A program made the position numbers and the translations under genes. A stretch of DNA of 20,276 nucleotides, taken from UHGV virus genome UHGV-1757948. One strand, 5' to 3'. This document shows positions 2-20,276 of this stretch, piece by piece. Origin of the DNA: a virus. The number at the start of each line of letters is the position of its first letter. Position 1 is the first letter of the stretch. The notes under the pieces were generated by a model. That model ran no database searches, was not told the DNA's origin, and saw only the letters and a program-made list of their open reading frames with translations.

Positions 2-3000
2 GTAAGATATAATCAAGAAGAGCATCTTCTGTATGTCAGCAACTATACTTGTAAAGCCGATGATAGCATACTTTATGAAATAAGTGTGGATTTAACAGAC
101 ACCCTGACCGTGTCTCAATCCTCATTCAGAGCACAGCTCGATTCCATAAAAACAGAGATACTTACATCCCTGACTTATGGCATGCGTGGTGACATTTTAG
201 CACAATGCGCGAAGTATTTTCTGCGGAAAGACAGTCCGGACACAGCCTTGGATATTATAACATTCCTCAAAGGGCTGCTTGTGGGAGACGGAGACTACGG
301 CATAGATGCGGACGGTACCGCACGGCTGAAGAAACTTCTTGCCGACGAAGCCACAATGAAAACGCTGACCGTGACAGGAAGGGCACATTTCTTCGAGCTT
401 GTCATAGATGAGCTGAACAGCGTCGGAGGTCAACTGATACTGTCCGCTGCTAACTGCACGGTACGCTCTGTCGAAAGAATAAGCGGAGCATGGCGTCTGT
501 GGTGGCTGGCGGAGGACAGCGACGGCAGAGCCGTGCAGAACATGTGGAAGGTCGGAGACCAGGCTCTGGCAATGACATCCAATCTTGCCGAGGGGACATC
601 ATATGATGCAGGAAACAGACTATGGTGGAGACTTGTCACGGCAACAGGGAGCGGAACACGGAACATTGACGGTGAGGACAGAAAGTGCCATTGGATTGAA
701 GTGTCTGAAGCCACGTGCGCGGCTGACAGCCTTGAGCCTGCAGAGGGTGACAGCGTTTGTCTGTGCGGACACCGTGGTGACGACACAGCGCGCAGCCATG
801 CGATAATAATAGCCGCCCACTCCACTCCGGATACCGAGCTGGAGAGTCCGTCATTCGCGCAATACAACGGAATCACAAGTTTTTCTCTAAGCCAGTACCG
901 CACGACATGGTTCGCGGCTAACGGCAATAAGATAAGAGGCGAGCTGGATGTGGACACTTCCGGTCTTGTCAGCTACACGCACCTTGCATGGGGAAACGGT
1001 CCGGACGACTGGACAAAGGACAAATCCCAGAGCACGGCAAAAGACTGGCTCATGCTCGGCATATGCACAGACCGCACGGAGAGCGACGTGGCTCTCGTCT
1101 ACAGCGACTATGCATGGTCAAGGATTAAAGGTACTGACGGAAAGACCACATACTTCCATGTGAAATATTCTTCAAACGAGAACGGAAATCCCATGACAGA
1201 GACGCCCAACCTCTACATCGGCACATACGTTGACTTCACTGAGGCAGACAGCAACGACCCCTCGGACTACACGTGGTCACGCTTCCAAGGATATGACGGG
1301 GAGCAGGGGATACCGGGGAAAAACGGTACGGACGGAAAGACAAGCTACCTTCACATCAAATATTCCGACGACGGGGGAAAGACGTTCACCGCCAGCAACG
1401 GTGAGACACCGGGTGCGTGGCTCGGGCAATGCGTAGACTTCAACTCATATGACCCGACAAGCGTTACCTCATATAAGTGGACACGGATACGCGGTGAGGA
1501 CGGAGCGGACGGAAGTGACGGTGAACCCGGCACGGACGGGCAGGACGGATTCTCGTGGGCACTTGACCCTGCCGCCATAACATTGGAGGCTGACAGTGAC
1601 GGTGTGGTGAGCATGCAGGATGCGACATCACGTCTGCGCGCATGGCTCGGCACGCGCGAGATGACTGTCACCATTACCGCCATAGAGCCAGTGCACTGTC
1701 TTGCGTCACGCAACGGGGCGCAGGTTACAATAACCGCAATAGGGACATATACGGCAGACTGGGGAGGTTCGGTGCCGTACGGAGCGGGATGGGTGCAGAT
1801 TACGGCACAGGCAACACTGGGAGGAGAGACCCGCAGTGTGAGCTGCCGCCTGTCCTTCACTGTATCGTCCATGGCACTCTCATCGCAGATTAAGGCTGAG
1901 ACGGACAGCATAAGCCTTAAAGTCGGCTATCTTGGGGCAAAGGACGGAAACATGGTGACCACTCCTGACATATTCCTGACAGGGAACGGGAACAAGACAT
2001 ACACAATCGGGGACATGTCAAGCCTGCGCGGAAAGACAATAACGGTATCATGCCTTGTCAAGACCGTATCCGCGGTTCCGGCGGCATCTGGCAACAGACG
2101 TATCGGCATGGAGCCCATGGTACGGTATGCCGACGGCAGCACGCAGTATCTCGGAACATGGAGGCAGATAACATCCACGGACACGTTCGAGGGACGCATA
2201 AGCTCCACACACAGGATACAGGATAAGGCTGTGGCGTCGGTAGAACAGTGTAACCTGTATATACAGGGCATATCATCAGGATACTCGTCCGTATCGCGTC
2301 CAAAGATAGAGACAGGTGCGGACGCGACAGACTGGGGACTCAGCGCGGAGGACAGGCTTAAAAGACCGAATCTTCTTCCAGGAACATCGGACTTCAGCCA
2401 ATGCACCGTACAGGATACCGTAGAGGCAGGAGCATACACGACACCTTACGGAGAAAAAATAAGCGTGGCACACGGTGTGAACGAAGCCGGGACATCATAC
2501 AAGGACGTCATCACATGGCGCAACGTGGTGCCCGAGCCGGGCGTACAGTATACGCTCTCATTCTGGGCGCGCGGCACAGGCAGCATCGGCTCGTACTTCT
2601 ATCCGAACTGCACCGACTGGGTCACAAGTCCGGGGACGAAGAACCAGACAGGTGTGACAGACGGATTCGTACAGTTCACGCTTGAAAGCGGATGGAACCG
2701 CTACCAGGTGACATGGAGCACACGCAACGATGTAAGCGGAGCGAAAAGTCTCATAGCGGCACGGCTCATGCCGGACAGTTCTGCACAGGGAGAGATCTGG
2801 ATATGCGGAGTGAAGCTGGAGAAAGGCAGCGAGGCGACAGACTGGCGTTCGGAGACAATCACGCACGACGAGCTGCAGGCGACAGGAATAGACATTGAGC
2901 ACAAGCGCATAAAGGTCACTGCCGACAACTTCGAGATACAGAACAACTCAGGCGAGACTGTCACCACTGTCGACGAGGCGGGCACCCTTACAGGTGTGAT

Positions 3001-3778
3001 GCTCCGCACTATGGACGAAGGACAGGGGCATGTGGAGATAAAGGGAGGACTGATTGAGGTAAAGAACCCTAACGGTGTGACCAACATCAAAATGGGATAT
3101 AACGGCTCATACATGGTACTGTCATATTATGACAATGACGGTACGTTCCTTTATGACCTCGGACCGTGGGGACTGTCCGGCAAGGATGTCTCGGAAGAAC
3201 GGTGGGAGACCAGCAGCAAATACGGACGCCTGCAGCTGACAGGGACCACATTCTCCACCGTAGGCGACATCGTTGGCAACAAACAGATAATGAACACCAT
3301 ATTCCAATATGGTCATGTGTACACGAAAACACCTTTGTACATGTATCTTGCAGGGCGCGTAAACGACACATATCTCAGCGGTGACTACGCCTCCACTCCG
3401 GAGATTGCAAGAGCCGCGAACGGCAGATGGTTCATGGAGCAGGGTAATGTGACCACGGCACAGGCTGTCACAGGAATGTGGGCGCAGGACAATCCGGAAT
3501 CGTTCATGATAGGCTCGCCTATGGACACACCGCCAATGGACTATACGCGATATGAAGATGACTATGCGGAAAAGGTGGATTTCTCCAGACAATGGTGCTC
3601 GCGCAATGTGTACAGATTCTCGAACATCGGAATCGTACAACCGGGAAGCGGCACCGTATACTACGGCAGCATGATAACGACAACAGCCGTATACATGAAT
3701 TATGACAGGGTGCAGATGATACAGATTAATCGCATTGACGATGATGACACGGACACGAACGGAAACATATATTTATGA
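2..3778 (+). CDS. Phage tail fibre / host-specificity protein with collagen-like Gly-X-Y runs, three ~55-aa tandem repeats and a C-terminal carbohydrate-binding-like domain; likely 5'-partial (first in-frame start is GTG at 86)
   Basis: The frame is open from position 2 to the stop at 3776-3778; the ORF track reports 86..3778 (1230 aa). Gly-X-Y runs (GEQGIPGKNGTDGKT; GEDGADGSDGEPGTDGQDG) are present. Three tandem repeats of the type SY.H.KYS..G...T...GETPG....DF.....DY.W.RI.G.DG resemble host-specificity proteins of Gram-positive phages. The C-terminal segment (YTLSFWARG...GWNRYQVTW...IWICGVKLEKGSEATDW) looks like a beta-sandwich CBM. Confidence 0.8.
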   Translation, partial: VRYNQEEHLLYVSNYTCKADDSILYEISVDLTDTLTVSQSSFRAQLDSIKTEILTSLTYGMRGDILAQCAKYFLRKDSPDTALDIITFLKGLLVGDGDYGIDADGTARLKKLLADEATMKTLTVTGRAHFFELVIDELNSVGGQLILSAANCTVRSVERISGAWRLWWLAEDSDGRAVQNMWKVGDQALAMTSNLAEGTSYDAGNRLWWRLVTATGSGTRNIDGEDRKCHWIEVSEATCAADSLEPAEGDSVCLCGHRGDDTARSHAIIIAAHSTPDTELESPSFAQYNGITSFSLSQYRTTWFAANGNKIRGELDVDTSGLVSYTHLAWGNGPDDWTKDKSQSTAKDWLMLGICTDRTESDVALVYSDYAWSRIKGTDGKTTYFHVKYSSNENGNPMTETPNLYIGTYVDFTEADSNDPSDYTWSRFQGYDGEQGIPGKNGTDGKTSYLHIKYSDDGGKTFTASNGETPGAWLGQCVDFNSYDPTSVTSYKWTRIRGEDGADGSDGEPGTDGQDGFSWALDPAAITLEADSDGVVSMQDATSRLRAWLGTREMTVTITAIEPVHCLASRNGAQVTITAIGTYTADWGGSVPYGAGWVQITAQATLGGETRSVSCRLSFTVSSMALSSQIKAETDSISLKVGYLGAKDGNMVTTPDIFLTGNGNKTYTIGDMSSLRGKTITVSCLVKTVSAVPAASGNRRIGMEPMVRYADGSTQYLGTWRQITSTDTFEGRISSTHRIQDKAVASVEQCNLYIQGISSGYSSVSRPKIETGADATDWGLSAEDRLKRPNLLPGTSDFSQCTVQDTVEAGAYTTPYGEKISVAHGVNEAGTSYKDVITWRNVVPEPGVQYTLSFWARGTGSIGSYFYPNCTDWVTSPGTKNQTGVTDGFVQFTLESGWNRYQVTWSTRNDVSGAKSLIAARLMPDSSAQGEIWICGVKLEKGSEATDWRSETITHDELQATGIDIEHKRIKVTADNFEIQNNSGETVTTVDEAGTLTGVMLRTMDEGQGHVEIKGGLIEVKNPNGVTNIKMGYNGSYMVLSYYDNDGTFLYDLGPWGLSGKDVSEERWETSSKYGRLQLTGTTFSTVGDIVGNKQIMNTIFQYGHVYTKTPLYMYLAGRVNDTYLSGDYASTPEIARAANGRWFMEQGNVTTAQAVTGMWAQDNPESFMIGSPMDTPPMDYTRYEDDYAEKVDFSRQWCSRNVYRFSNIGIVQPGSGTVYYGSMITTTAVYMNYDRVQMIQINRIDDDDTDTNGNIYL

Positions 3779-7895: not shown

Positions 7896-8489
7896 ATGGA
7901 AAAGTTTAAAGTTATACTTGATGCGGGACACGGAAGGGACACCGCAGGGAAACGTTCGCCTGACGGACGCCTGCTCGAATACGCATACGCCCGTGAGATT
8001 GCAGTGCGTCTTGAAAGGGAACTCAAGGCACGTGGATATGACGCGCAGCGCATTGTGCCCGAGGAAAACGACATCTGCCTGAAAGAGCGGTGCGAAAGGG
8101 CAAACAGAATTTATGCCGCGACAGGAAAGAAAGCGATACTTGTCTCAATACACTGTAACGCGGCTGGTGCCGACGGCAAATGGCATGACGCCAGAGGATG
8201 GTCGGCTTATGTCTCGCGCAACGCTTCAAAGAAGAGCAAAGAGCTCGCCTGCCGTCTGATTGACGCGGCAGAGACACAAGGACTGAAAGTCCGAAGATAC
8301 TCACAGGATGAGCCATATTGGACACAGAATCTCGCAATATGCCGTGACACAAATTGTCCCGCAGTCCTGACTGAAAACCTTTTTCAGGACAACCGGGAGG
8401 ACGTGGACTATCTGCTGAGCGAGAAAGGCAAGCGAACCATTGTGGAGCTGCACGTGGAAGGCATCATGGCGTACTTGGGGAAAGTGTGA
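7896..8489 (+). CDS. N-acetylmuramoyl-L-alanine amidase (Amidase_3/CwlA-type endolysin)
   Basis: It carries the diagnostic Amidase_3 motifs: ILDAGHG.DTAGKRS, E..YA..IA, SIHCNAAG and LTENLFQDN.ED.DYL. It follows the holin-like genes. Confidence 0.85.
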   Translation: MEKFKVILDAGHGRDTAGKRSPDGRLLEYAYAREIAVRLERELKARGYDAQRIVPEENDICLKERCERANRIYAATGKKAILVSIHCNAAGADGKWHDARGWSAYVSRNASKKSKELACRLIDAAETQGLKVRRYSQDEPYWTQNLAICRDTNCPAVLTENLFQDNREDVDYLLSEKGKRTIVELHVEGIMAYLGKV

Positions 8490-8544: not shown

Positions 8545-8647
8545 AAAGGCGTTCTTTGACATTGTGGGTTGCCGTTAAAAATACAATATTTTCGAAAAAT
8601 TATATACAATTATTTTGGGAAATTATATATCTTTGCACAATATAAGA

Positions 8648-8672: not shown

Positions 8673-9302
8673 ATGACAGACGGTGTGCCCGTCTTAAATT
8701 TAAATTATATGGCAAAGATAAATAATAATTTTGAGAAACGAAAACGCATCACGAAAAATGAAGCGTTGGAACTGCTAAAAGATTGTTATGAGGACATCTT
8801 CAAGGCGTATTACGCAGGTCTGGAAAATTACAATGAAGAAATAAATATGACCATACCTGAAGCAAGGACAAGGCTTGTAGGTCCTTTGCTTAACGCAAAA
8901 ATAACAGAGAGTTTCATTCTCACATTTCCCGAGAACTGGAACAAAGGCAAATACGGAAGGATAATATTCAGATGGAACGGTGTGCTCATGCTCATCAAGA
9001 AATTGAACAAGAATGACAAGCCGTCTTACATTCCGACAATACTTTCAGATTCGATTGTCAACCAATACCAATTACCGCTTTTCCAAGGCGATGAAGGCAA
9101 GGAAGAGCCGATATTGATTTTCGGATATACAAAGGACGGTTTCGGGCAGCTCGTAAACCCGAGAATTGTCTTGTATGACGATGGGGTTCAATGGACTGCC
9201 TATATGGAAGACGGTGTAAATATGCCGACTGCCAATACAGACACGCAGGAGATTATTGTCCGCCTGAAAAAGAAAGAGACAGGAGAAAAGAAGGCAGAAT
9301 AA
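8673..9302 (+). CDS. Hypothetical protein (209 aa, low GC, no SD; alternative start at M13 = 8709); unknown partner of the HTH-ImmA regulator
   Basis: A long ORF with coding-like composition on the same strand as, and 52 nt upstream of, the HTH-ImmA gene. No recognisable motif was found. Confidence 0.5.
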   Translation: MTDGVPVLNLNYMAKINNNFEKRKRITKNEALELLKDCYEDIFKAYYAGLENYNEEINMTIPEARTRLVGPLLNAKITESFILTFPENWNKGKYGRIIFRWNGVLMLIKKLNKNDKPSYIPTILSDSIVNQYQLPLFQGDEGKEEPILIFGYTKDGFGQLVNPRIVLYDDGVQWTAYMEDGVNMPTANTDTQEIIVRLKKKETGEKKAE

Positions 9303-9354: not shown

Positions 9355-10410
9355 ATGAAATGTGAGCAGCTAACATTCGCAAGGGAATACAGGGGATTTA
9401 CGCAAACCGCACTCGCGGCAAAAGTCAAAGGGCTATCGCAATCCAACCTGTCAAAATATGAAAAGGGGTTTGGCGGGCTGTCAGACAACATGCTTAGTTT
9501 GATTATGTCCACGCTTGATTTTCCGATGAAATTCCTTGACATGAATATTGTGAACAAGGTTGACAGCAAGCATTACAGGAAAAAGGCAACCATAACCGTA
9601 AAGACACGCAACGAGATAGACAGGACAATATCCCTGATTGCGTATTGTTTTGATTGGCTTAGTGAATTTGTCGAGATACCTGACTATTCATTTGGATACT
9701 ACGACATGGACAACGGCATAAGCCCGGAGGAACTTGCCGGGCACATAAGGAACAAATACAGGCTCGGCATGTCGCCTATATCCGATATTTGCAATTTCCT
9801 TGAGCGCAATGGGGTATTCATTTACATGTGGGACAGTCCTAACGACGAGTTTGACGGGGTATCCCTGATAACTGACGCAGGCAATCATCTTATCATTGTG
9901 AACAGGAACAGAAGCAACGACAGGGTAAGGTTTACGCTTGCACATGAGCTGGGACACATACTGATGCACGAGTGCCCAAGTTTCCCGGTATTCAGCATTA
10001 GAGACAAGGAGAAAGAGGCGAACGCTTTTGCATCAGAGTTCCTTCTCCCCTCCCAGGCTGTCAGAAACGCCTTGCACAATGTCAGGCTCGGACAGTTCCC
10101 TGAGCTGAAACGGTATTGGCTTGTTTCCATGGCATCACTTTTGGAAAAGGCAAAAAACATAAACGCCATTGCAAGTGAGAAGTACAAGTCTATGAGAATG
10201 GAGTTCAGCAGACGCCATTGGAATAAGAAAGAACCTTACGAAGTGCCTATTGACAGCCCTACCGTCTTTGAGCAGGCATATAGGCTGGTATCGGACACAT
10301 TGGGGTATTCAATCAGCATGATTTCGGAAAGCACAGGCTTGCCCGAGGATGTCTTGATAAAGATATTCGGCAAATCTGCGAGGATAATATCATTAAAGCC
10401 ACTAATATAA
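9355..10410 (+). CDS. XRE-family HTH fused to an ImmA/IrrE-family (COG2856) zinc metallopeptidase
   Basis: The N-terminus has an HTH_XRE signature (FTQTALAAKVKGLSQSNLSKYEKG). The central region has the HEXXH zinc motif in ImmA-like context (FTLAHELGHILMHE). Confidence 0.85.
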   Translation: MKCEQLTFAREYRGFTQTALAAKVKGLSQSNLSKYEKGFGGLSDNMLSLIMSTLDFPMKFLDMNIVNKVDSKHYRKKATITVKTRNEIDRTISLIAYCFDWLSEFVEIPDYSFGYYDMDNGISPEELAGHIRNKYRLGMSPISDICNFLERNGVFIYMWDSPNDEFDGVSLITDAGNHLIIVNRNRSNDRVRFTLAHELGHILMHECPSFPVFSIRDKEKEANAFASEFLLPSQAVRNALHNVRLGQFPELKRYWLVSMASLLEKAKNINAIASEKYKSMRMEFSRRHWNKKEPYEVPIDSPTVFEQAYRLVSDTLGYSISMISESTGLPEDVLIKIFGKSARIISLKPLI

Positions 10411-13903: not shown

Positions 13904-14068
13904 TTATCTTGTGATTTTAGAGGAAATTTTCCTTGTATTTCCTTTGTTTTCCTTTGCCAAACACTCATTGCCACATCTTCTGCCCACGTCGTACTTATCG
14001 CACCATCCGTCTCCGTAGAAGCCTTCGTTAATGAAGTGGATACATGAGCCGCAGTGTCTTGCTTTCAT
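13904..14068 (-). CDS. Small Cys-rich zinc-ribbon-like protein (54 aa), translationally coupled to the PP-loop enzyme gene
   Basis: The translation is MKARHCGSCIHFINEGFYGDGWCDKYDVGRRCGNECLAKENKGNTRKISSKITR. Its ATG overlaps the upstream stop as ATGA at 14065-14068. It is absent from the 60-aa ORF track. Confidence 0.35.
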   Translation of the reverse strand: MKARHCGSCIHFINEGFYGDGWCDKYDVGRRCGNECLAKENKGNTRKISSKITR

Positions 14069-14982
14069 TTTTCGTCGTCTTTAAATTCAAATTTCTGTTG
14101 CAGGAACTCGTCAGCGTAGAACTGCTTGTAGCTCTTGTCGCTTATCCACCACCTAAAGCCTGTTTCAGCGTCGTTGAAATTGTGGTCGATATATCCGTTG
14201 TCTATCAGCCATTGGATTGTCTTTATCCAATTGCGTTTGACGTGCGGCCAGCGTTTAGCATCTTCCTTCTTTATCCGTGCGTTCGACATAGGGCAACAGA
14301 TGCAGCCAATGCGTGTATAACCCTCGTCGTAGAGTTCGCAGTGTGGTATGCCGTTCATGTTAAGGAACTCCCACACGTCGCGCTCCGTCCAATAGATTAT
14401 GGGCGATACAAGGATTTTGTCCTTACCGCCGACACACGCAACCATGCTCTCCTCATGTTCGCTCCATTGGTCAAAGGTTTCCTCATTGCGCTTGCCCTTT
14501 ATCTCTGTGGATATTTCCTCACGTTTTGCACGCCGTGCGCTTTCTTCTTTTCTCACACCGATAAGTGTCACCTTGCCAACGCCTGACGTTTCCTTGAACT
14601 CGGCACAACACCAACGCAAAGTCCTTGTCGGCAAGATGTGCTTTTTCTTCGCCATTTCGTAAATGCTCATCCGTGGTTTGATTAGCTCCACATCGGGGTA
14701 TTGCGTCTTGACGAAGCGGATGACTTCGGGCGGGTCTATGCTCGTAAGGTTCATGTGAGCCTTGAAGCGGACACCGGCCAGCTTTGCGACATGGTAGAGG
14801 CATTGGCTGTCCTTGCCGCCACTGAACGCAAGGTAAAAGCCGTTTTCGGGGTCGAGGCGCAACGCCATTTTCTCCGACTTCCGCAAAAGTTCGACGGAGT
14901 GTTCCAGCTTCCTTGCAAGCGGACGGCTTACCTTTGACATTACGGTGTCGTGGTCAAGCAGTATTATTTCACACGCTTTCAT
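14065..14982 (-). CDS. PAPS-reductase family / PP-loop ATPase protein (DndC/IbrA/CysH-like; tRNA-thiolase-like alternative not excluded)
   Basis: It has the PP-loop FSGGKDS, the RWCCAEFK motif and a C-terminal GCICCP Cys cluster. Its ATG at 14982 is coupled (ATGA) to the upstream small ORF. Confidence 0.8.
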   Translation of the reverse strand: MKACEIILLDHDTVMSKVSRPLARKLEHSVELLRKSEKMALRLDPENGFYLAFSGGKDSQCLYHVAKLAGVRFKAHMNLTSIDPPEVIRFVKTQYPDVELIKPRMSIYEMAKKKHILPTRTLRWCCAEFKETSGVGKVTLIGVRKEESARRAKREEISTEIKGKRNEETFDQWSEHEESMVACVGGKDKILVSPIIYWTERDVWEFLNMNGIPHCELYDEGYTRIGCICCPMSNARIKKEDAKRWPHVKRNWIKTIQWLIDNGYIDHNFNDAETGFRWWISDKSYKQFYADEFLQQKFEFKDDEK

Positions 14983-15113: not shown

Positions 15114-15260
15114 CTAATCGTCTACAATGGCTTTTGCTAAACCGAAGAGAAGGATATATATTCCTAACATGAGCAGTACCCATGGGAAACTTGTCAACAT
15201 CCATATAGAGGCTGCCACGCAAAGTGCACCGGCATGGATGATTAGTTCAGTTCTGTTCAT
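15114..15260 (-). CDS. Small membrane protein (48 aa)
   Basis: The translation is MNRTELIIHAGALCVAASIWMLTSFPWVLLMLGIYILLFGLAKAIVDD. Its ATG overlaps the radical-SAM gene stop as ATGA. Confidence 0.3.
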   Translation of the reverse strand: MNRTELIIHAGALCVAASIWMLTSFPWVLLMLGIYILLFGLAKAIVDD

Positions 15261-16162
15261 TGCTTCATATTTTTAAGTTTGTAACTATTCTCATTAAGCC
15301 ACTTTTGGAAATACCATAACTGACCGCATCCGCCACCTATATCGTCTTGCCCTGCCGGGTTAAATACTCTCGTATTAAAACCTACGTCATTCATCTTTGA
15401 ATTAAAGTCACGGATTAAGTCAAGTTGTCGCTGTATTGATGAATGTACACTTTCATCCTTTTCGCAAATAACAGACAAAGTGACCTCCCATATATCAGGG
15501 TTAAATAATTCAGAGAGCCTCATAGCATCTTCCATATCATTATTCCCGACATGTACGCAATAATTAAAGAAAGGCTTTCTTCCGACATAAGAAGCCCAAA
15601 ACTCACCCGTAGAAGCTATTTGCCGAAGTGTTGACGTATTCGTTGCTATAAGTTTCTTCCTTTTTTCATCTGTACTTTCATGTACTGAAAATTGAAGACC
15701 TACTTTATCTATTTCTTTCGATAGTGCAATAAAATCAGACATGTATAAATACATCATGTGAGGGGCAGAAGTGCTTACAAGAAGTTGTGCGTTTGGATAT
15801 TTCACATGTAGACTTTCTATTGCAGGCTGCAATGCCGAGTAGTTGTAAAAAGGCTCTCCCATGCTCATAAACATAATTTGGAACTTTTTAATGTCATCAG
15901 TGCGGCAATCAATAGTAGATAATGCCCCATCAATCTGTTGTATTATTTCGTCAGTAGAAAGATTTCTGACAAAAAATTTGCCTGTTCCGCAGAAAGAACA
16001 TCCAACTGGACAACCGCTTTGAACCGAACAACATATAACTGTCCTTTTTTTGTATTCTCCATATCTATAAAGAACAGTTTCAGCAATAGCATTTGGCTTG
16101 TCCCACTCAAACACGAATTTCTTTACATTCGTATCACTTGATTCAAATACTTTTGTTTTCAT
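15257..16162 (-). CDS. RlmN/Cfr-family radical SAM methyltransferase homologue, minimal form lacking the N-terminal accessory domain
   Basis: The radical-SAM CX3CX2C is in RlmN context: ICCSVQSGCPVGCSFCGTG versus RlmN LCVSSQVGCALECKFC, including the upstream catalytic Cys. It also has FMSMGEPFYN (versus MGMGEPLLN), LVSTSA and the C-terminal catalytic motif DIGGGCGQL (versus DIDAACGQL). The gene is strongly AT-rich (~38% GC) relative to its neighbours. Confidence 0.85.
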   Translation of the reverse strand: MKTKVFESSDTNVKKFVFEWDKPNAIAETVLYRYGEYKKRTVICCSVQSGCPVGCSFCGTGKFFVRNLSTDEIIQQIDGALSTIDCRTDDIKKFQIMFMSMGEPFYNYSALQPAIESLHVKYPNAQLLVSTSAPHMMYLYMSDFIALSKEIDKVGLQFSVHESTDEKRKKLIATNTSTLRQIASTGEFWASYVGRKPFFNYCVHVGNNDMEDAMRLSELFNPDIWEVTLSVICEKDESVHSSIQRQLDLIRDFNSKMNDVGFNTRVFNPAGQDDIGGGCGQLWYFQKWLNENSYKLKNMKQ

Positions 16163-18958: not shown

Positions 18959-19675
18959 TCAGTCCTCCCTCACTTCTATAGGCTCACCGTCAACTAACTT
19001 ATACCAAGTGTCGGACTTTATTGTCTCTCCGTCTACCTTGAATGCCTTGACATCCTTTATAGGATACGTTTCTCCGTTCCAACTGTCACGTTCCGTAAGG
19101 ACTATCCAGCAGCCGAGAGCACCTTTCGCCTTGCTGCCCTTGCCTGTCACTATGGCAACAGAATCCTTACCATCAACACTTGCGGCGGAGCAGTCGCCCG
19201 TGTTGGTGGCGGCTGACCTGTAGCCCGTGTTGGTAGCAGCGGAGCAGTCGCCCGTGTTGGTGGCGGCGGAGCAGTTGCCCGTGTTGGTGGCGGCTGACCA
19301 GTCGCCCGTGTTCGATTGTTTATTATCATCCCATTTTACATGGTCCATGATGAACTTGACTCCTGCTTTAATCAGTCCCTGTAAGCCTATTTCGGCTTTG
19401 ATTTTCAAATGGGTACAACATATTTTATCAGGTTTAGACTTGTCAAAATCACCGCTGCCTTCAACTTCACAAAACCTGTTCGGTGTTCCCGTTTCGTCGC
19501 ACGGAGCGTAAAAGCCCAGCACATCCATAGGGCATTCGCAATAATGGAAACCGGTATTGCAGGCGACCGCCTTGTCTGTTGAATACTCCTTGCCGACTTC
19601 GTACTGGAAGCCGCGGCACTTCAGGTCTTTGTCAAAACCTTTATAGCCATGAATCGTTTCTGTCTCTTTTTTCAT
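18959..19675 (-). CDS. Hypothetical protein with a Cys/His-rich N-terminal domain and a central 9-aa tandem repeat (SAATNTGxC x5)
   Basis: The N-terminus (GFQYEVGKEY...CNTGFHYCECPMDVLGFYAPCD...CCTHL) looks like a metal-binding module. The middle of the protein is encoded by a 27-bp tandem repeat. Confidence 0.6.
   Translation of the reverse strand: MKKETETIHGYKGFDKDLKCRGFQYEVGKEYSTDKAVACNTGFHYCECPMDVLGFYAPCDETGTPNRFCEVEGSGDFDKSKPDKICCTHLKIKAEIGLQGLIKAGVKFIMDHVKWDDNKQSNTGDWSAATNTGNCSAATNTGDCSAATNTGYRSAATNTGDCSAASVDGKDSVAIVTGKGSKAKGALGCWIVLTERDSWNGETYPIKDVKAFKVDGETIKSDTWYKLVDGEPIEVRED
19185..19319. repeat. 27-bp in-frame tandem repeat, ~5 copies
   Basis: Units at 19185-19211 and 19239-19265 are identical. 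The unit at 19266-19292 differs by 1 nt, and those at 19212-19238 and 19293-19319 are diverged. There are no spacers, so this is not a CRISPR array. Confidence 0.8.
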
Positions 19676-19687
19676 AGTTTTGAATTT

Positions 19688-19870
19688 TCATTTGTTACGC
19701 AACTGTATGAAGCCGTCGGCTTCGTATTTTTTCAGTTCGGCAAGTCCGTCATCCGTAACGGTGACGATATTCTCTCCGTTTACCGTCATGCCTTCTACGA
19801 TGCCGAACCGCTGCCGGATATTGTCTATGATGCGGGCGTTCTCCGTCACCCAGTAGATTGTAATTCTCAT
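19688..19870 (-). CDS. Small hypothetical protein (60 aa; start at MRITIYW)
   Basis: The ATG at 19870 is preceded by AGGAGtcaatATG. The longer track ORF (start 19978) would overlap the methyltransferase gene and lacks an RBS. Confidence 0.4.
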   Translation of the reverse strand: MRITIYWVTENARIIDNIRQRFGIVEGMTVNGENIVTVTDDGLAELKKYEADGFIQLRNK

Positions 19871-19958
19871 ATTGACTCCTGTTCTTCGTTTTCTACTTGC
19901 GCTATCGCGCGGAATATCTCGTAAACAACCTGTGGCACCATTGCGTTGCCCAACGCCT

Positions 19959-20276
19959 TTATGGATTCTGCCCGCCATCGAGGAAAGGTGATACCAGCCA
20001 GTCTGCCGGGAAACCCATCATCTCCTGTACAAACAAGGGATTGAGTCGGGAAGTCGCGCCATCGGCTTGCGGGCAGTTCTTCATAATTTCCGCCACAAGC
20101 CCGTGCCTGTTCTTCTGTGACGGTGGGAATGTGGAGTTTTTCCCGTTGGTCGCCTCCGGTGTCGGAAGCAGTCCGTGGAAATCCATGTAATCCATCAGAC
20201 CGTTCGGTCTTGTCTCCCCGTTCGCCCTGCTGTGGAACGTGTCGCCGCCCGCCGCCTTCAAATCCTTTACCCTCCC
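19959..20276 (-). CDS. DNA methyltransferase, C-terminal fragment (phage Dcm-like tail); the gene continues beyond the window
   Basis: The reading frame is open to the window edge. LLPTPEATNGKN and SRLNPLFVQEMMGFPADW match the LLPTPxAxDG / NPxFVEWLMGFPxGW motifs found at the C-termini of phage C5-cytosine DNA methyltransferases. Confidence 0.55.
   Translation of the reverse strand, partial: GRVKDLKAAGGDTFHSRANGETRPNGLMDYMDFHGLLPTPEATNGKNSTFPPSQKNRHGLVAEIMKNCPQADGATSRLNPLFVQEMMGFPADWLVSPFLDGGQNP

Follow-up and report, generated by a model that had tools for sequence, protein, structure and literature searches.

Coding minisatellites are known from the collagen-like repeats of phage tail fibres and from repeat-bearing bacterial surface proteins, while the head repeats of YadA-like (Hep_Hag) adhesins have a period of 14-15 residues. 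For a pair of cultured Acinetobacter phages, fLi-Aba02 and fLi-Aba03, a region of difference was listed by the authors in 2020 as made of ‘27 bp repetitions (6-13 repetitions)’ (PMC7354433). This passing mention of the variation, a Pfam entry for the protein family concerned (DUF7666) and a resemblance to ADP-ribosyltransferases recorded in GenBank annotations make up what is already known. In the searchable literature we found no published account of DUF7666 as a family, of the SAATNTG repeat or of the homologous protein gp53 of Salmonella phage ES18. Nor does the family-wide picture appear there, namely units of seven conserved and two variable residues, present in 1 to about 28 copies, with concerted evolution of the DNA, breaks in assemblies and mis-annotation.

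Here we analysed a stretch of 20,276 nucleotides from the virus genome UHGV-1757948 (hereafter the window), which appears to be the whole metagenomic contig of a tailed phage; in the database searched, the DUF7666 protein described below is listed on one contig only, of 20,276 bp. We consider it roughly 60% probable that the repeat it carries is a coding minisatellite whose units are the half-coils of a beta-roll joining an ADP-ribosyltransferase-like head to a C-terminal cap, with the length and order of the array changed by slippage or unequal recombination.

Using Tandem Repeats Finder (TRF), we found that positions 19182-19312 form by far the strongest tandem array of the window (period 27, 4.9 copies, 84% matches, 0 indels, score 199), and a second repeat search returned the same 27-nt register and spacing. 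This interval and the one marked in the original prediction, 19185-19319, describe one array. The five 27-nt units announced there, two of them identical and one a 1-nt variant, are exact by both TRF and direct comparison: units 19185-19211 and 19239-19265 share the sequence GCGGAGCAGTCGCCCGTGTTGGTGGCG, unit 19266-19292 is 1 base off, and units 19212-19238 and 19293-19319 show greater divergence, the last one leaving the repeat. A 15-nt core, GCCACCAACACGGGC, occurs four times in the window when up to 2 mismatches are allowed, in the array only; 0.06 occurrences are expected by chance, and a count of 4 was reached in 0 of 100 shuffles.

The array lies in frame, as had been claimed, inside a minus-strand open reading frame (ORF) of 238 aa (18959..19675), the gene of a DUF7666-family phage protein consisting of an N-terminal domain, a nonapeptide array and a C-terminal domain. 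At the protein level, the minisatellite (19190..19312, minus strand; aa 122-162) comprises the partial unit NTGDW followed by four full units of the form SAATNTG[N/D/Y][C/R], in the order SAATNTGNC, SAATNTGDC, SAATNTGYR and SAATNTGDC, and then SAAS...; translation confirms the three peptide types read from it earlier (SAATNTGDC, SAATNTGNC and SAATNTGYR). Beyond the array come the degenerate 9-residue units SAASVDGKD, SVAIVTGKG and SKAKGALGC, and then WIVLTERD. The array is also a GC island, with 67% GC and a GC3 of 0.87 against 44-49% GC and a GC3 of 0.49 in the flanking parts of the gene. In other lineages the same peptide is written in codons less GC-rich than those of the window array, and biased conversion, a founder unit or a horizontal origin are possible causes of the island.

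The sole Pfam match of the 238-aa protein at E≤1 is PF24703 (DUF7666), at 110.6 bits against a gathering cut-off of 27 (E 5.3e-32; aa 8-104, model positions 1-95 of 95). The protein also matches phrog_4433 (E 9.5e-84), and a search of NCBIfam gave just a far sub-threshold match of YdhT to the repeat. The DUF7666 N-terminal domain (19364..19654, minus strand; aa 8-104, modelled as aa 1-115) carries conserved C20, C39, H44, C46 and Y56. On the other side of the array, the degenerate 9-residue continuation and a small C-terminal beta domain (18962..19189, minus strand) match phrog_27197 (E 4.1e-41; aa 140-235). This C-terminal part is strongly conserved in an alignment of homologues, and the small beta domain probably caps the repeat stack. 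The repeats had been described as lying between a Cys/His-rich N-terminal domain and a C-terminal domain, and this holds, with C20, C39, H44 and C46 present in 88-97% of representatives.

The window protein thereby has the usual DUF7666 architecture of N-domain, 9-aa repeats and conserved C-terminal domain, as seen in two alignments and in the translations of ES18 gp53 and the phi2 homologue; the N-domain was kept in 9 of 10 divergent relatives. More than 8000 DUF7666 homologues were found, with 4915 clusters (50% identity) at E≤1e-3. Their hosts are phages and prophages of Pseudomonadota, Bacillota and Bacteroidota, and prophage copies of the gene were recovered from Bacillota, Bacteroides, Mucilaginibacter and Paenibacillus. 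The name ‘c-type lectin precursor’ given to the homologues of Salmonella phages SEN22 and S107 appears wrong.

Copy number differs between genomes that are otherwise nearly identical. Over 7.3 kb, the sequences on the two sides of the array in one related contig (L002) match the window at 99.90% and 99.97% identity, yet the contig is shorter by exactly 81 bp, or 3 units. Its lone unit consists of the 5′ 21 nt of window unit 1 and the 3′ end of unit 4, which is the product expected of in-register slippage or recombination. A Logan assembly (L003) carries the same short allele, and a third relative (L001), 97-99.5% identical to the window, has nine full units in a different type order and is 135 bp longer. 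Around the DUF7666 gene, fLi-Aba02 and fLi-Aba03 are 99.5-99.9% identical, and the gene measures 1038 nt in the former and 876 nt in the latter; these 162 bp equal 6 units and account for the entire difference in genome length (35093 versus 34931). In Pseudomonas phages YA3 (27 units) and Flu_PA14_4 (26 units), the order is reshuffled and blocks are duplicated within a region that is ~98% identical overall. These whole-unit differences support the earlier proposal that the array is a substrate for copy-number change.

Across related genomes, the number of units is clearly not invariant: it ranges from 1 to 19 among 270 homologues and from 1 to about 28 across the family, metagenome copy numbers being approximate because short-read assembly mishandles the array. 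Even and odd numbers were equally favoured (123 versus 115, p = 0.65). In every comparison the alleles were separated by a multiple of 27 and remained in frame, except in the frameshifted fEg-Aba01 record; with a 27-nt unit, a phase-variable on/off contingency locus was therefore rejected. That record (L088, 2968-3800) has a frameshift at the array start, with the product annotated as truncated at 195 aa, and IUPAC ambiguity codes stand at the variable codons of the fLi-Aba03 record (L087). Both irregularities could reflect heterogeneity of the phage stock or an assembly problem. Exact-flank scans for more window-lineage alleles gave 0 matches to the 5′ flank and 2 to the 3′ flank in IMG/VR, and 2 matches in JGI metagenomes, with no new full allele among them. 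A Megablast search of complete E. coli genomes for copy-number polymorphism, with ES18 gp53 and the ECO95 homologue as queries, returned nothing.

The array also leaves its mark on databases. Its interior is the start or end of the contig in 45 of 93 related loci (IMG/VR L035-L085 and GTDB L095-L097), many of them on complete-looking contigs of 40-60 kb, and one such contig (L036), which at 98% identity represents the window phage itself, is broken within the array. In the record of Vibrio phage 1.185.O (MG592551; L106, 1878-2095), four ‘CRISPR spacers’ are annotated within the homologous coding sequence. They follow the 54-nt (2 x 27) periodicity of the DUF7666 repeat, which makes this a false CRISPR call.

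We examined 2167 units for conservation and variation. SAATNTG is exact in 67% of them, and the remainder are mostly close variants such as SVATNTG and SAASNTG. Phages of Salmonella, Pseudomonas, Acinetobacter and Vibrio retain the motif or something close to it, as does the window phage, with SASSATG as the Acinetobacter phage variant of the core and GAASATG as a variant of one clade of IMG/VR phages. At position 8, 89% of the units have D, N or Y (D in 874 of the 2167) and only 2% have H, though H is one mutation away; at position 9, 85% have R, C, Y, Q or W. About 3-5 dipeptide cassettes occur per lineage. The seven core codons read TCC GCC GCC ACC AAC ACG GGC in the window, TCA GCA GCA ACC AAC ACT GGC in ES18 and TCG GCA GCC AGC AAC ACC GGC in phi2, so that synonymous codons differ among lineages and are near-uniform inside one array. 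Together, the conserved core, the restricted positions 8 and 9 and the lineage-specific, array-uniform codons indicate that the peptide is under purifying selection and that the DNA evolves in concert. Distant family members have degenerate arrays that retain an S-hydrophobic-A-x-N-x-G-x-x period, indicating that the repeat domain is ancient and obligatory and that recently homogenised and expanded arrays belong to some lineages only.

Using AlphaFold, we obtained a full-length model with a pLDDT of 74.8, in which beta strands recur every 9 residues between residues 121 and 196. Within a unit, AATN forms the strand, and T-G together with the two variable residues forms the turn. The original prediction likened the repeat to a beta-solenoid. 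Model confidence is low in the perfect repeats, with a pLDDT of 44-56, which leaves the beta-roll predicted rather than demonstrated. The C-terminal strands (164-167, 173-176, 182-185 and 190-196) have pLDDT values of 76-91. In 68 of 270 homologues the best internal periodicity is 18 residues, which fits two units per coil, and the lack of an even or odd preference in copy number is a poor fit to a rigid two-units-per-coil rod with a fixed end orientation.

Modelled alone, the N-domain reached a pLDDT of 92.6 and a pTM of 0.85. The GenBank record of fEg-Aba01 carries a note of a match to the rifampin ADP-ribosyltransferase structure, an independent entry by its annotators, and BC2332, a protein discussed below, has been classed in the ADP-ribosyltransferase superfamily (PMC3000352). 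On these grounds we call the predicted fold of the domain ADP-ribosyltransferase-like (SCOP d.166). A Foldseek search of the N-domain against the PDB returned nothing significant. Sequence searches of solved structures with full-length and N-domain profiles gave only compositional (Spt5 nonapeptide tail, a flagellin-hook-motif protein) or insignificant matches, and hhalign of the N-domain profile with ARR-2 (sequence verified against PDB 9iba) gave no signal. With regard to an H-Y-E or R-S-E catalytic motif lining an NAD+ pocket, H44 and Y56 are present in 92% and 93% of representatives. The candidates for the third, acidic position vary (E72 in 69%, E70 in 51% and E95 in 85%), and this position lacks conservation. 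The pattern of C20, C39, H44 and C46 resembles a metal site more than an NAD+ site, and H44 may belong to that metal site.

On the coding-minisatellite reading, one 27-nt unit encodes one nonapeptide, S-A-A-T-N-T-G-x-x, in which AATN would be a short strand and T-G-x-x an exposed turn. Stacked units, with a probable two to each coil, would build a rod of the beta-roll or solenoid type that joins the DUF7666 head, with its putative ADP-ribosyltransferase-like fold, to the small C-terminal capping domain. The 21-29 nt of identical DNA between units make whole-unit slippage or recombination possible. Replication slippage or unequal recombination would add, remove and reshuffle whole units and leave frame and fold intact, such that the length of the rod (between 1 and about 28 units in the family) and the succession of its few turn cassettes (DC, NC, YR, DW and others) would evolve much faster than the remaining genome. 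The product of this early or lysogeny-side operon would most likely be a cytoplasmic, host-directed effector.

The genome setting of the gene was compared across phages. In the window, late genes lie on the plus strand and encode a 1230-aa tail fibre, an Amidase_3 lysin and a regulator in which HTH is fused to Peptidase_M78, and the minus strand carries genes of DNA metabolism and host takeover, namely a DNA methyltransferase, the DUF7666 gene, an RlmN/Cfr-like radical-SAM gene, a PAPS-reductase/BrxP-like gene, YopX and a MazG-like pyrophosphatase. Upstream of the DUF7666 gene and in the same operon lies the methyltransferase gene (19959..20276, minus strand; phrog_1008), of which the contig end leaves the 3′ part; L001 has a complete 359-aa PF00145 gene at this position. 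Between the two, a small gene of 61 aa (19688..19873, minus strand; phrog_19578) stands 12 nt from the DUF7666 start and is kept in place in L001 and L002.

In ES18, the PL operon has gp53 immediately after an N-like antiterminator. Three Acinetobacter phages carry the gene between those of the CI repressor and the integrase; it lies downstream of CI in Pseudomonas phages phi2 and YA3, and between RNase H-like and VRR-NUC genes in the Vibrio phage. In both the window and the Vibrio phage it sits among methylase, nuclease and replication genes. These are early or lysogeny-side operons in the window and in the homologues alike and, from position alone, the earlier description as an ‘early gene’ is fair. 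A conserved small partner gene, following a toxin-antitoxin idea (PMC7354433), was rejected: the ORFs directly upstream of the DUF7666 gene in five phages are mutually unrelated, and the 61-aa gene of the window shows no homology to the small upstream ORFs of other phages.

Several other features of the window were recorded. A PAPS-reductase-domain protein (14065-14982, minus strand; PF01507, E 3.3e-22) matches BrxP of BREX in PADLOC (E 2.3e-16) and is conserved in the syntenic L001 and L002. A 301-aa radical-SAM protein (15257-16162, minus strand) resembles RlmN/Cfr 23S rRNA methyltransferases, with a match to TIGR00048 (E 5.9e-28) far under the family cut-off. HTH_3 and Peptidase_M78 domains usually occur in two separate proteins; here a 351-aa protein (9355-10410, plus strand) fuses HTH_3 to the ImmA/IrrE-like Peptidase_M78 at the boundary between the late plus-strand and early minus-strand genes. 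An AT-rich 23-nt tandem repeat (8581-8629; 2.1 copies, TRF score 68), which may be a regulatory site, lies between the amidase gene (7896-8489) and an ORF at 8673-9302. The 1230-aa tail-fibre-like protein (86-3778, plus strand) matches collagen repeats and carbohydrate-binding modules weakly, has numerous PHROG matches to tail-fibre and host-range proteins, and may be a second repeat-bearing protein of the window that is variable too.

The variation could itself be adaptive, as in the arms-race idea of the original prediction, with the turn dipeptides and the number of coils forming a fast-changing recognition surface by which an early effector, possibly an anti-defence one, tracks a host target in the manner of contingency loci or diversity-generating systems. 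Unit number and order do differ where the flanks are 97-99.9% identical, and the variable positions, in predicted exposed turns, favour D, N, Y, R and W, which typify binding sites. In lambdoid phages, accessory and anti-defence genes occupy positions of the kind held by the DUF7666 gene, and the fold to which we assign the N-domain is common to AcrIF11 and other ADP-ribosylating effectors. The residue restriction and the genomic position are suggestive of adaptive variation. However, PADLOC gave no defence-related family match for the DUF7666 protein or its neighbours except for the assignment of the PAPS-reductase gene to BrxP, a conserved partner gene was looked for in vain, and the few cassettes of each lineage represent low diversity for a recognition surface. 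Moreover, any perfect tandem repeat changes fast, under selection or not. On balance we regard adaptive hypervariability as unlikely, at about a third of the weight given to the minisatellite reading.

We hold equally tentatively a broader proposal, that DUF7666 defines a large class of phage early effectors in which a constant ADP-ribosyltransferase-like or metal-binding head is combined with a fast-varying beta-roll. Such proteins might achieve an enzyme-free, gene-built diversification for recognising a changing host or defence target, through recombination that alters coil number and reshuffles the exposed D/N/Y plus R/C/Y/Q/W turn cassettes.

Somewhat less probable again is that the repeat is a neutral spacer, a tolerated low-complexity linker whose length drifts because its DNA is slippery and in which neither length nor unit order matters. 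The wide range of copy numbers without parity preference, the low pLDDT of the repeat and the one-unit allele in apparently viable phage genomes would all suit a spacer. A mere linker would not be expected to conserve the first seven residues of its unit across distant hosts despite different codons, nor to restrict positions 8 and 9 and avoid His; in addition, the old degenerate arrays of distant members keep the S-x-A-x-N-x-G period, and the model gives regular strands rather than coil.

Very improbable are an artefact of assembly and a role for the repeat at the DNA or RNA level, be it in a CRISPR-like array, among iterons or in the variable region of a diversity-generating retroelement, since, although short-read contigs often break in arrays and MG592551 annotates one as CRISPR spacers, the short allele recurs in separate assemblies by different software, whole-unit differences between plaque-purified phages were reported independently (PMC7354433) and conservation is at the amino-acid, not the codon, level. 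Three specific candidates of this kind were rejected. A retroelement variable region disagrees with a core found in the array and nowhere else in the window, with the lack of a reverse transcriptase among the scanned ORFs and with G/A/T variation at a single base of position 8, which is not adenine-specific. A CRISPR array disagrees with units made of a 21-nt conserved core and only 6 variable nt of few recurring types, too little for spacers, inside a conserved ORF. A structured RNA was dismissed as there was no Rfam match.

DUF7666 is a large family whose genes hold prime sites on the early or lysogeny side. Should its ADP-ribosyltransferase-like head prove active, or its variable roll bind a host factor, the family would form a new group of proteins for host takeover or anti-defence that evolves in an unusual way. 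In practical terms, the array breaks short-read assemblies, with about half of the related contigs ending within it, and it is a possible sensitive strain-typing marker for otherwise identical phages.

Among known systems, ES18 gp53, Gp30c of fLi-Aba02/03 (‘putative ADP-ribosyltransferase’) and the homologues of phi2 and YA3 have the same three-part architecture as the window protein, the same 27-nt/9-aa repeat ending in T-G-[D/N/Y]-x and the same early or lysogeny-side gene position. The ES18, Acinetobacter and Pseudomonas homologues differ in being 37-50% identical to the window protein, in having 10-28 units and in their cassettes (NW/DQ/YQ and NR/DY/YQ). ADP-ribosyltransferase-fold proteins such as BC2332 (2aua), Arr, Tpt1/KptA, AcrIF11 and the Rhs toxin domains TreTu/TreX show no sequence or profile similarity to the N-domain, and Foldseek comparisons were not significant. 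The enzymes of this fold have no metal site of the kind that the three Cys and one His of DUF7666 suggest, whereas their acidic catalytic residue is not conserved in DUF7666.

The predicted repeat behaves like a beta-roll without being an RTX repeat: compared with the RTX beta-roll (Bordetella CyaA block V), the window protein lacks GGxGxDxUx, the conserved Ca2+-binding Asp, the large hydrophobic core residue and a secretion signal, and the Pfam RTX model gave no match. The resemblance to Hep_Hag-like adhesins put forward in the original prediction was not upheld, as the Pfam Hep_Hag model does not match and features of trimeric autotransporters are absent: unlike YadA-like adhesin heads, the window protein has a period of 9, has no signal peptide, stalk or membrane anchor, and is phage-encoded and most likely cytoplasmic. 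The coding minisatellites are the nearer parallel in that their unit is a multiple of three, their copy number varies in close relatives by slippage or unequal recombination and their units are homogenised. The DUF7666 repeat differs from them in belonging to a probably cytoplasmic early protein instead of a surface or virion protein, and in combining seven strictly conserved residues with two variable ones in every unit.
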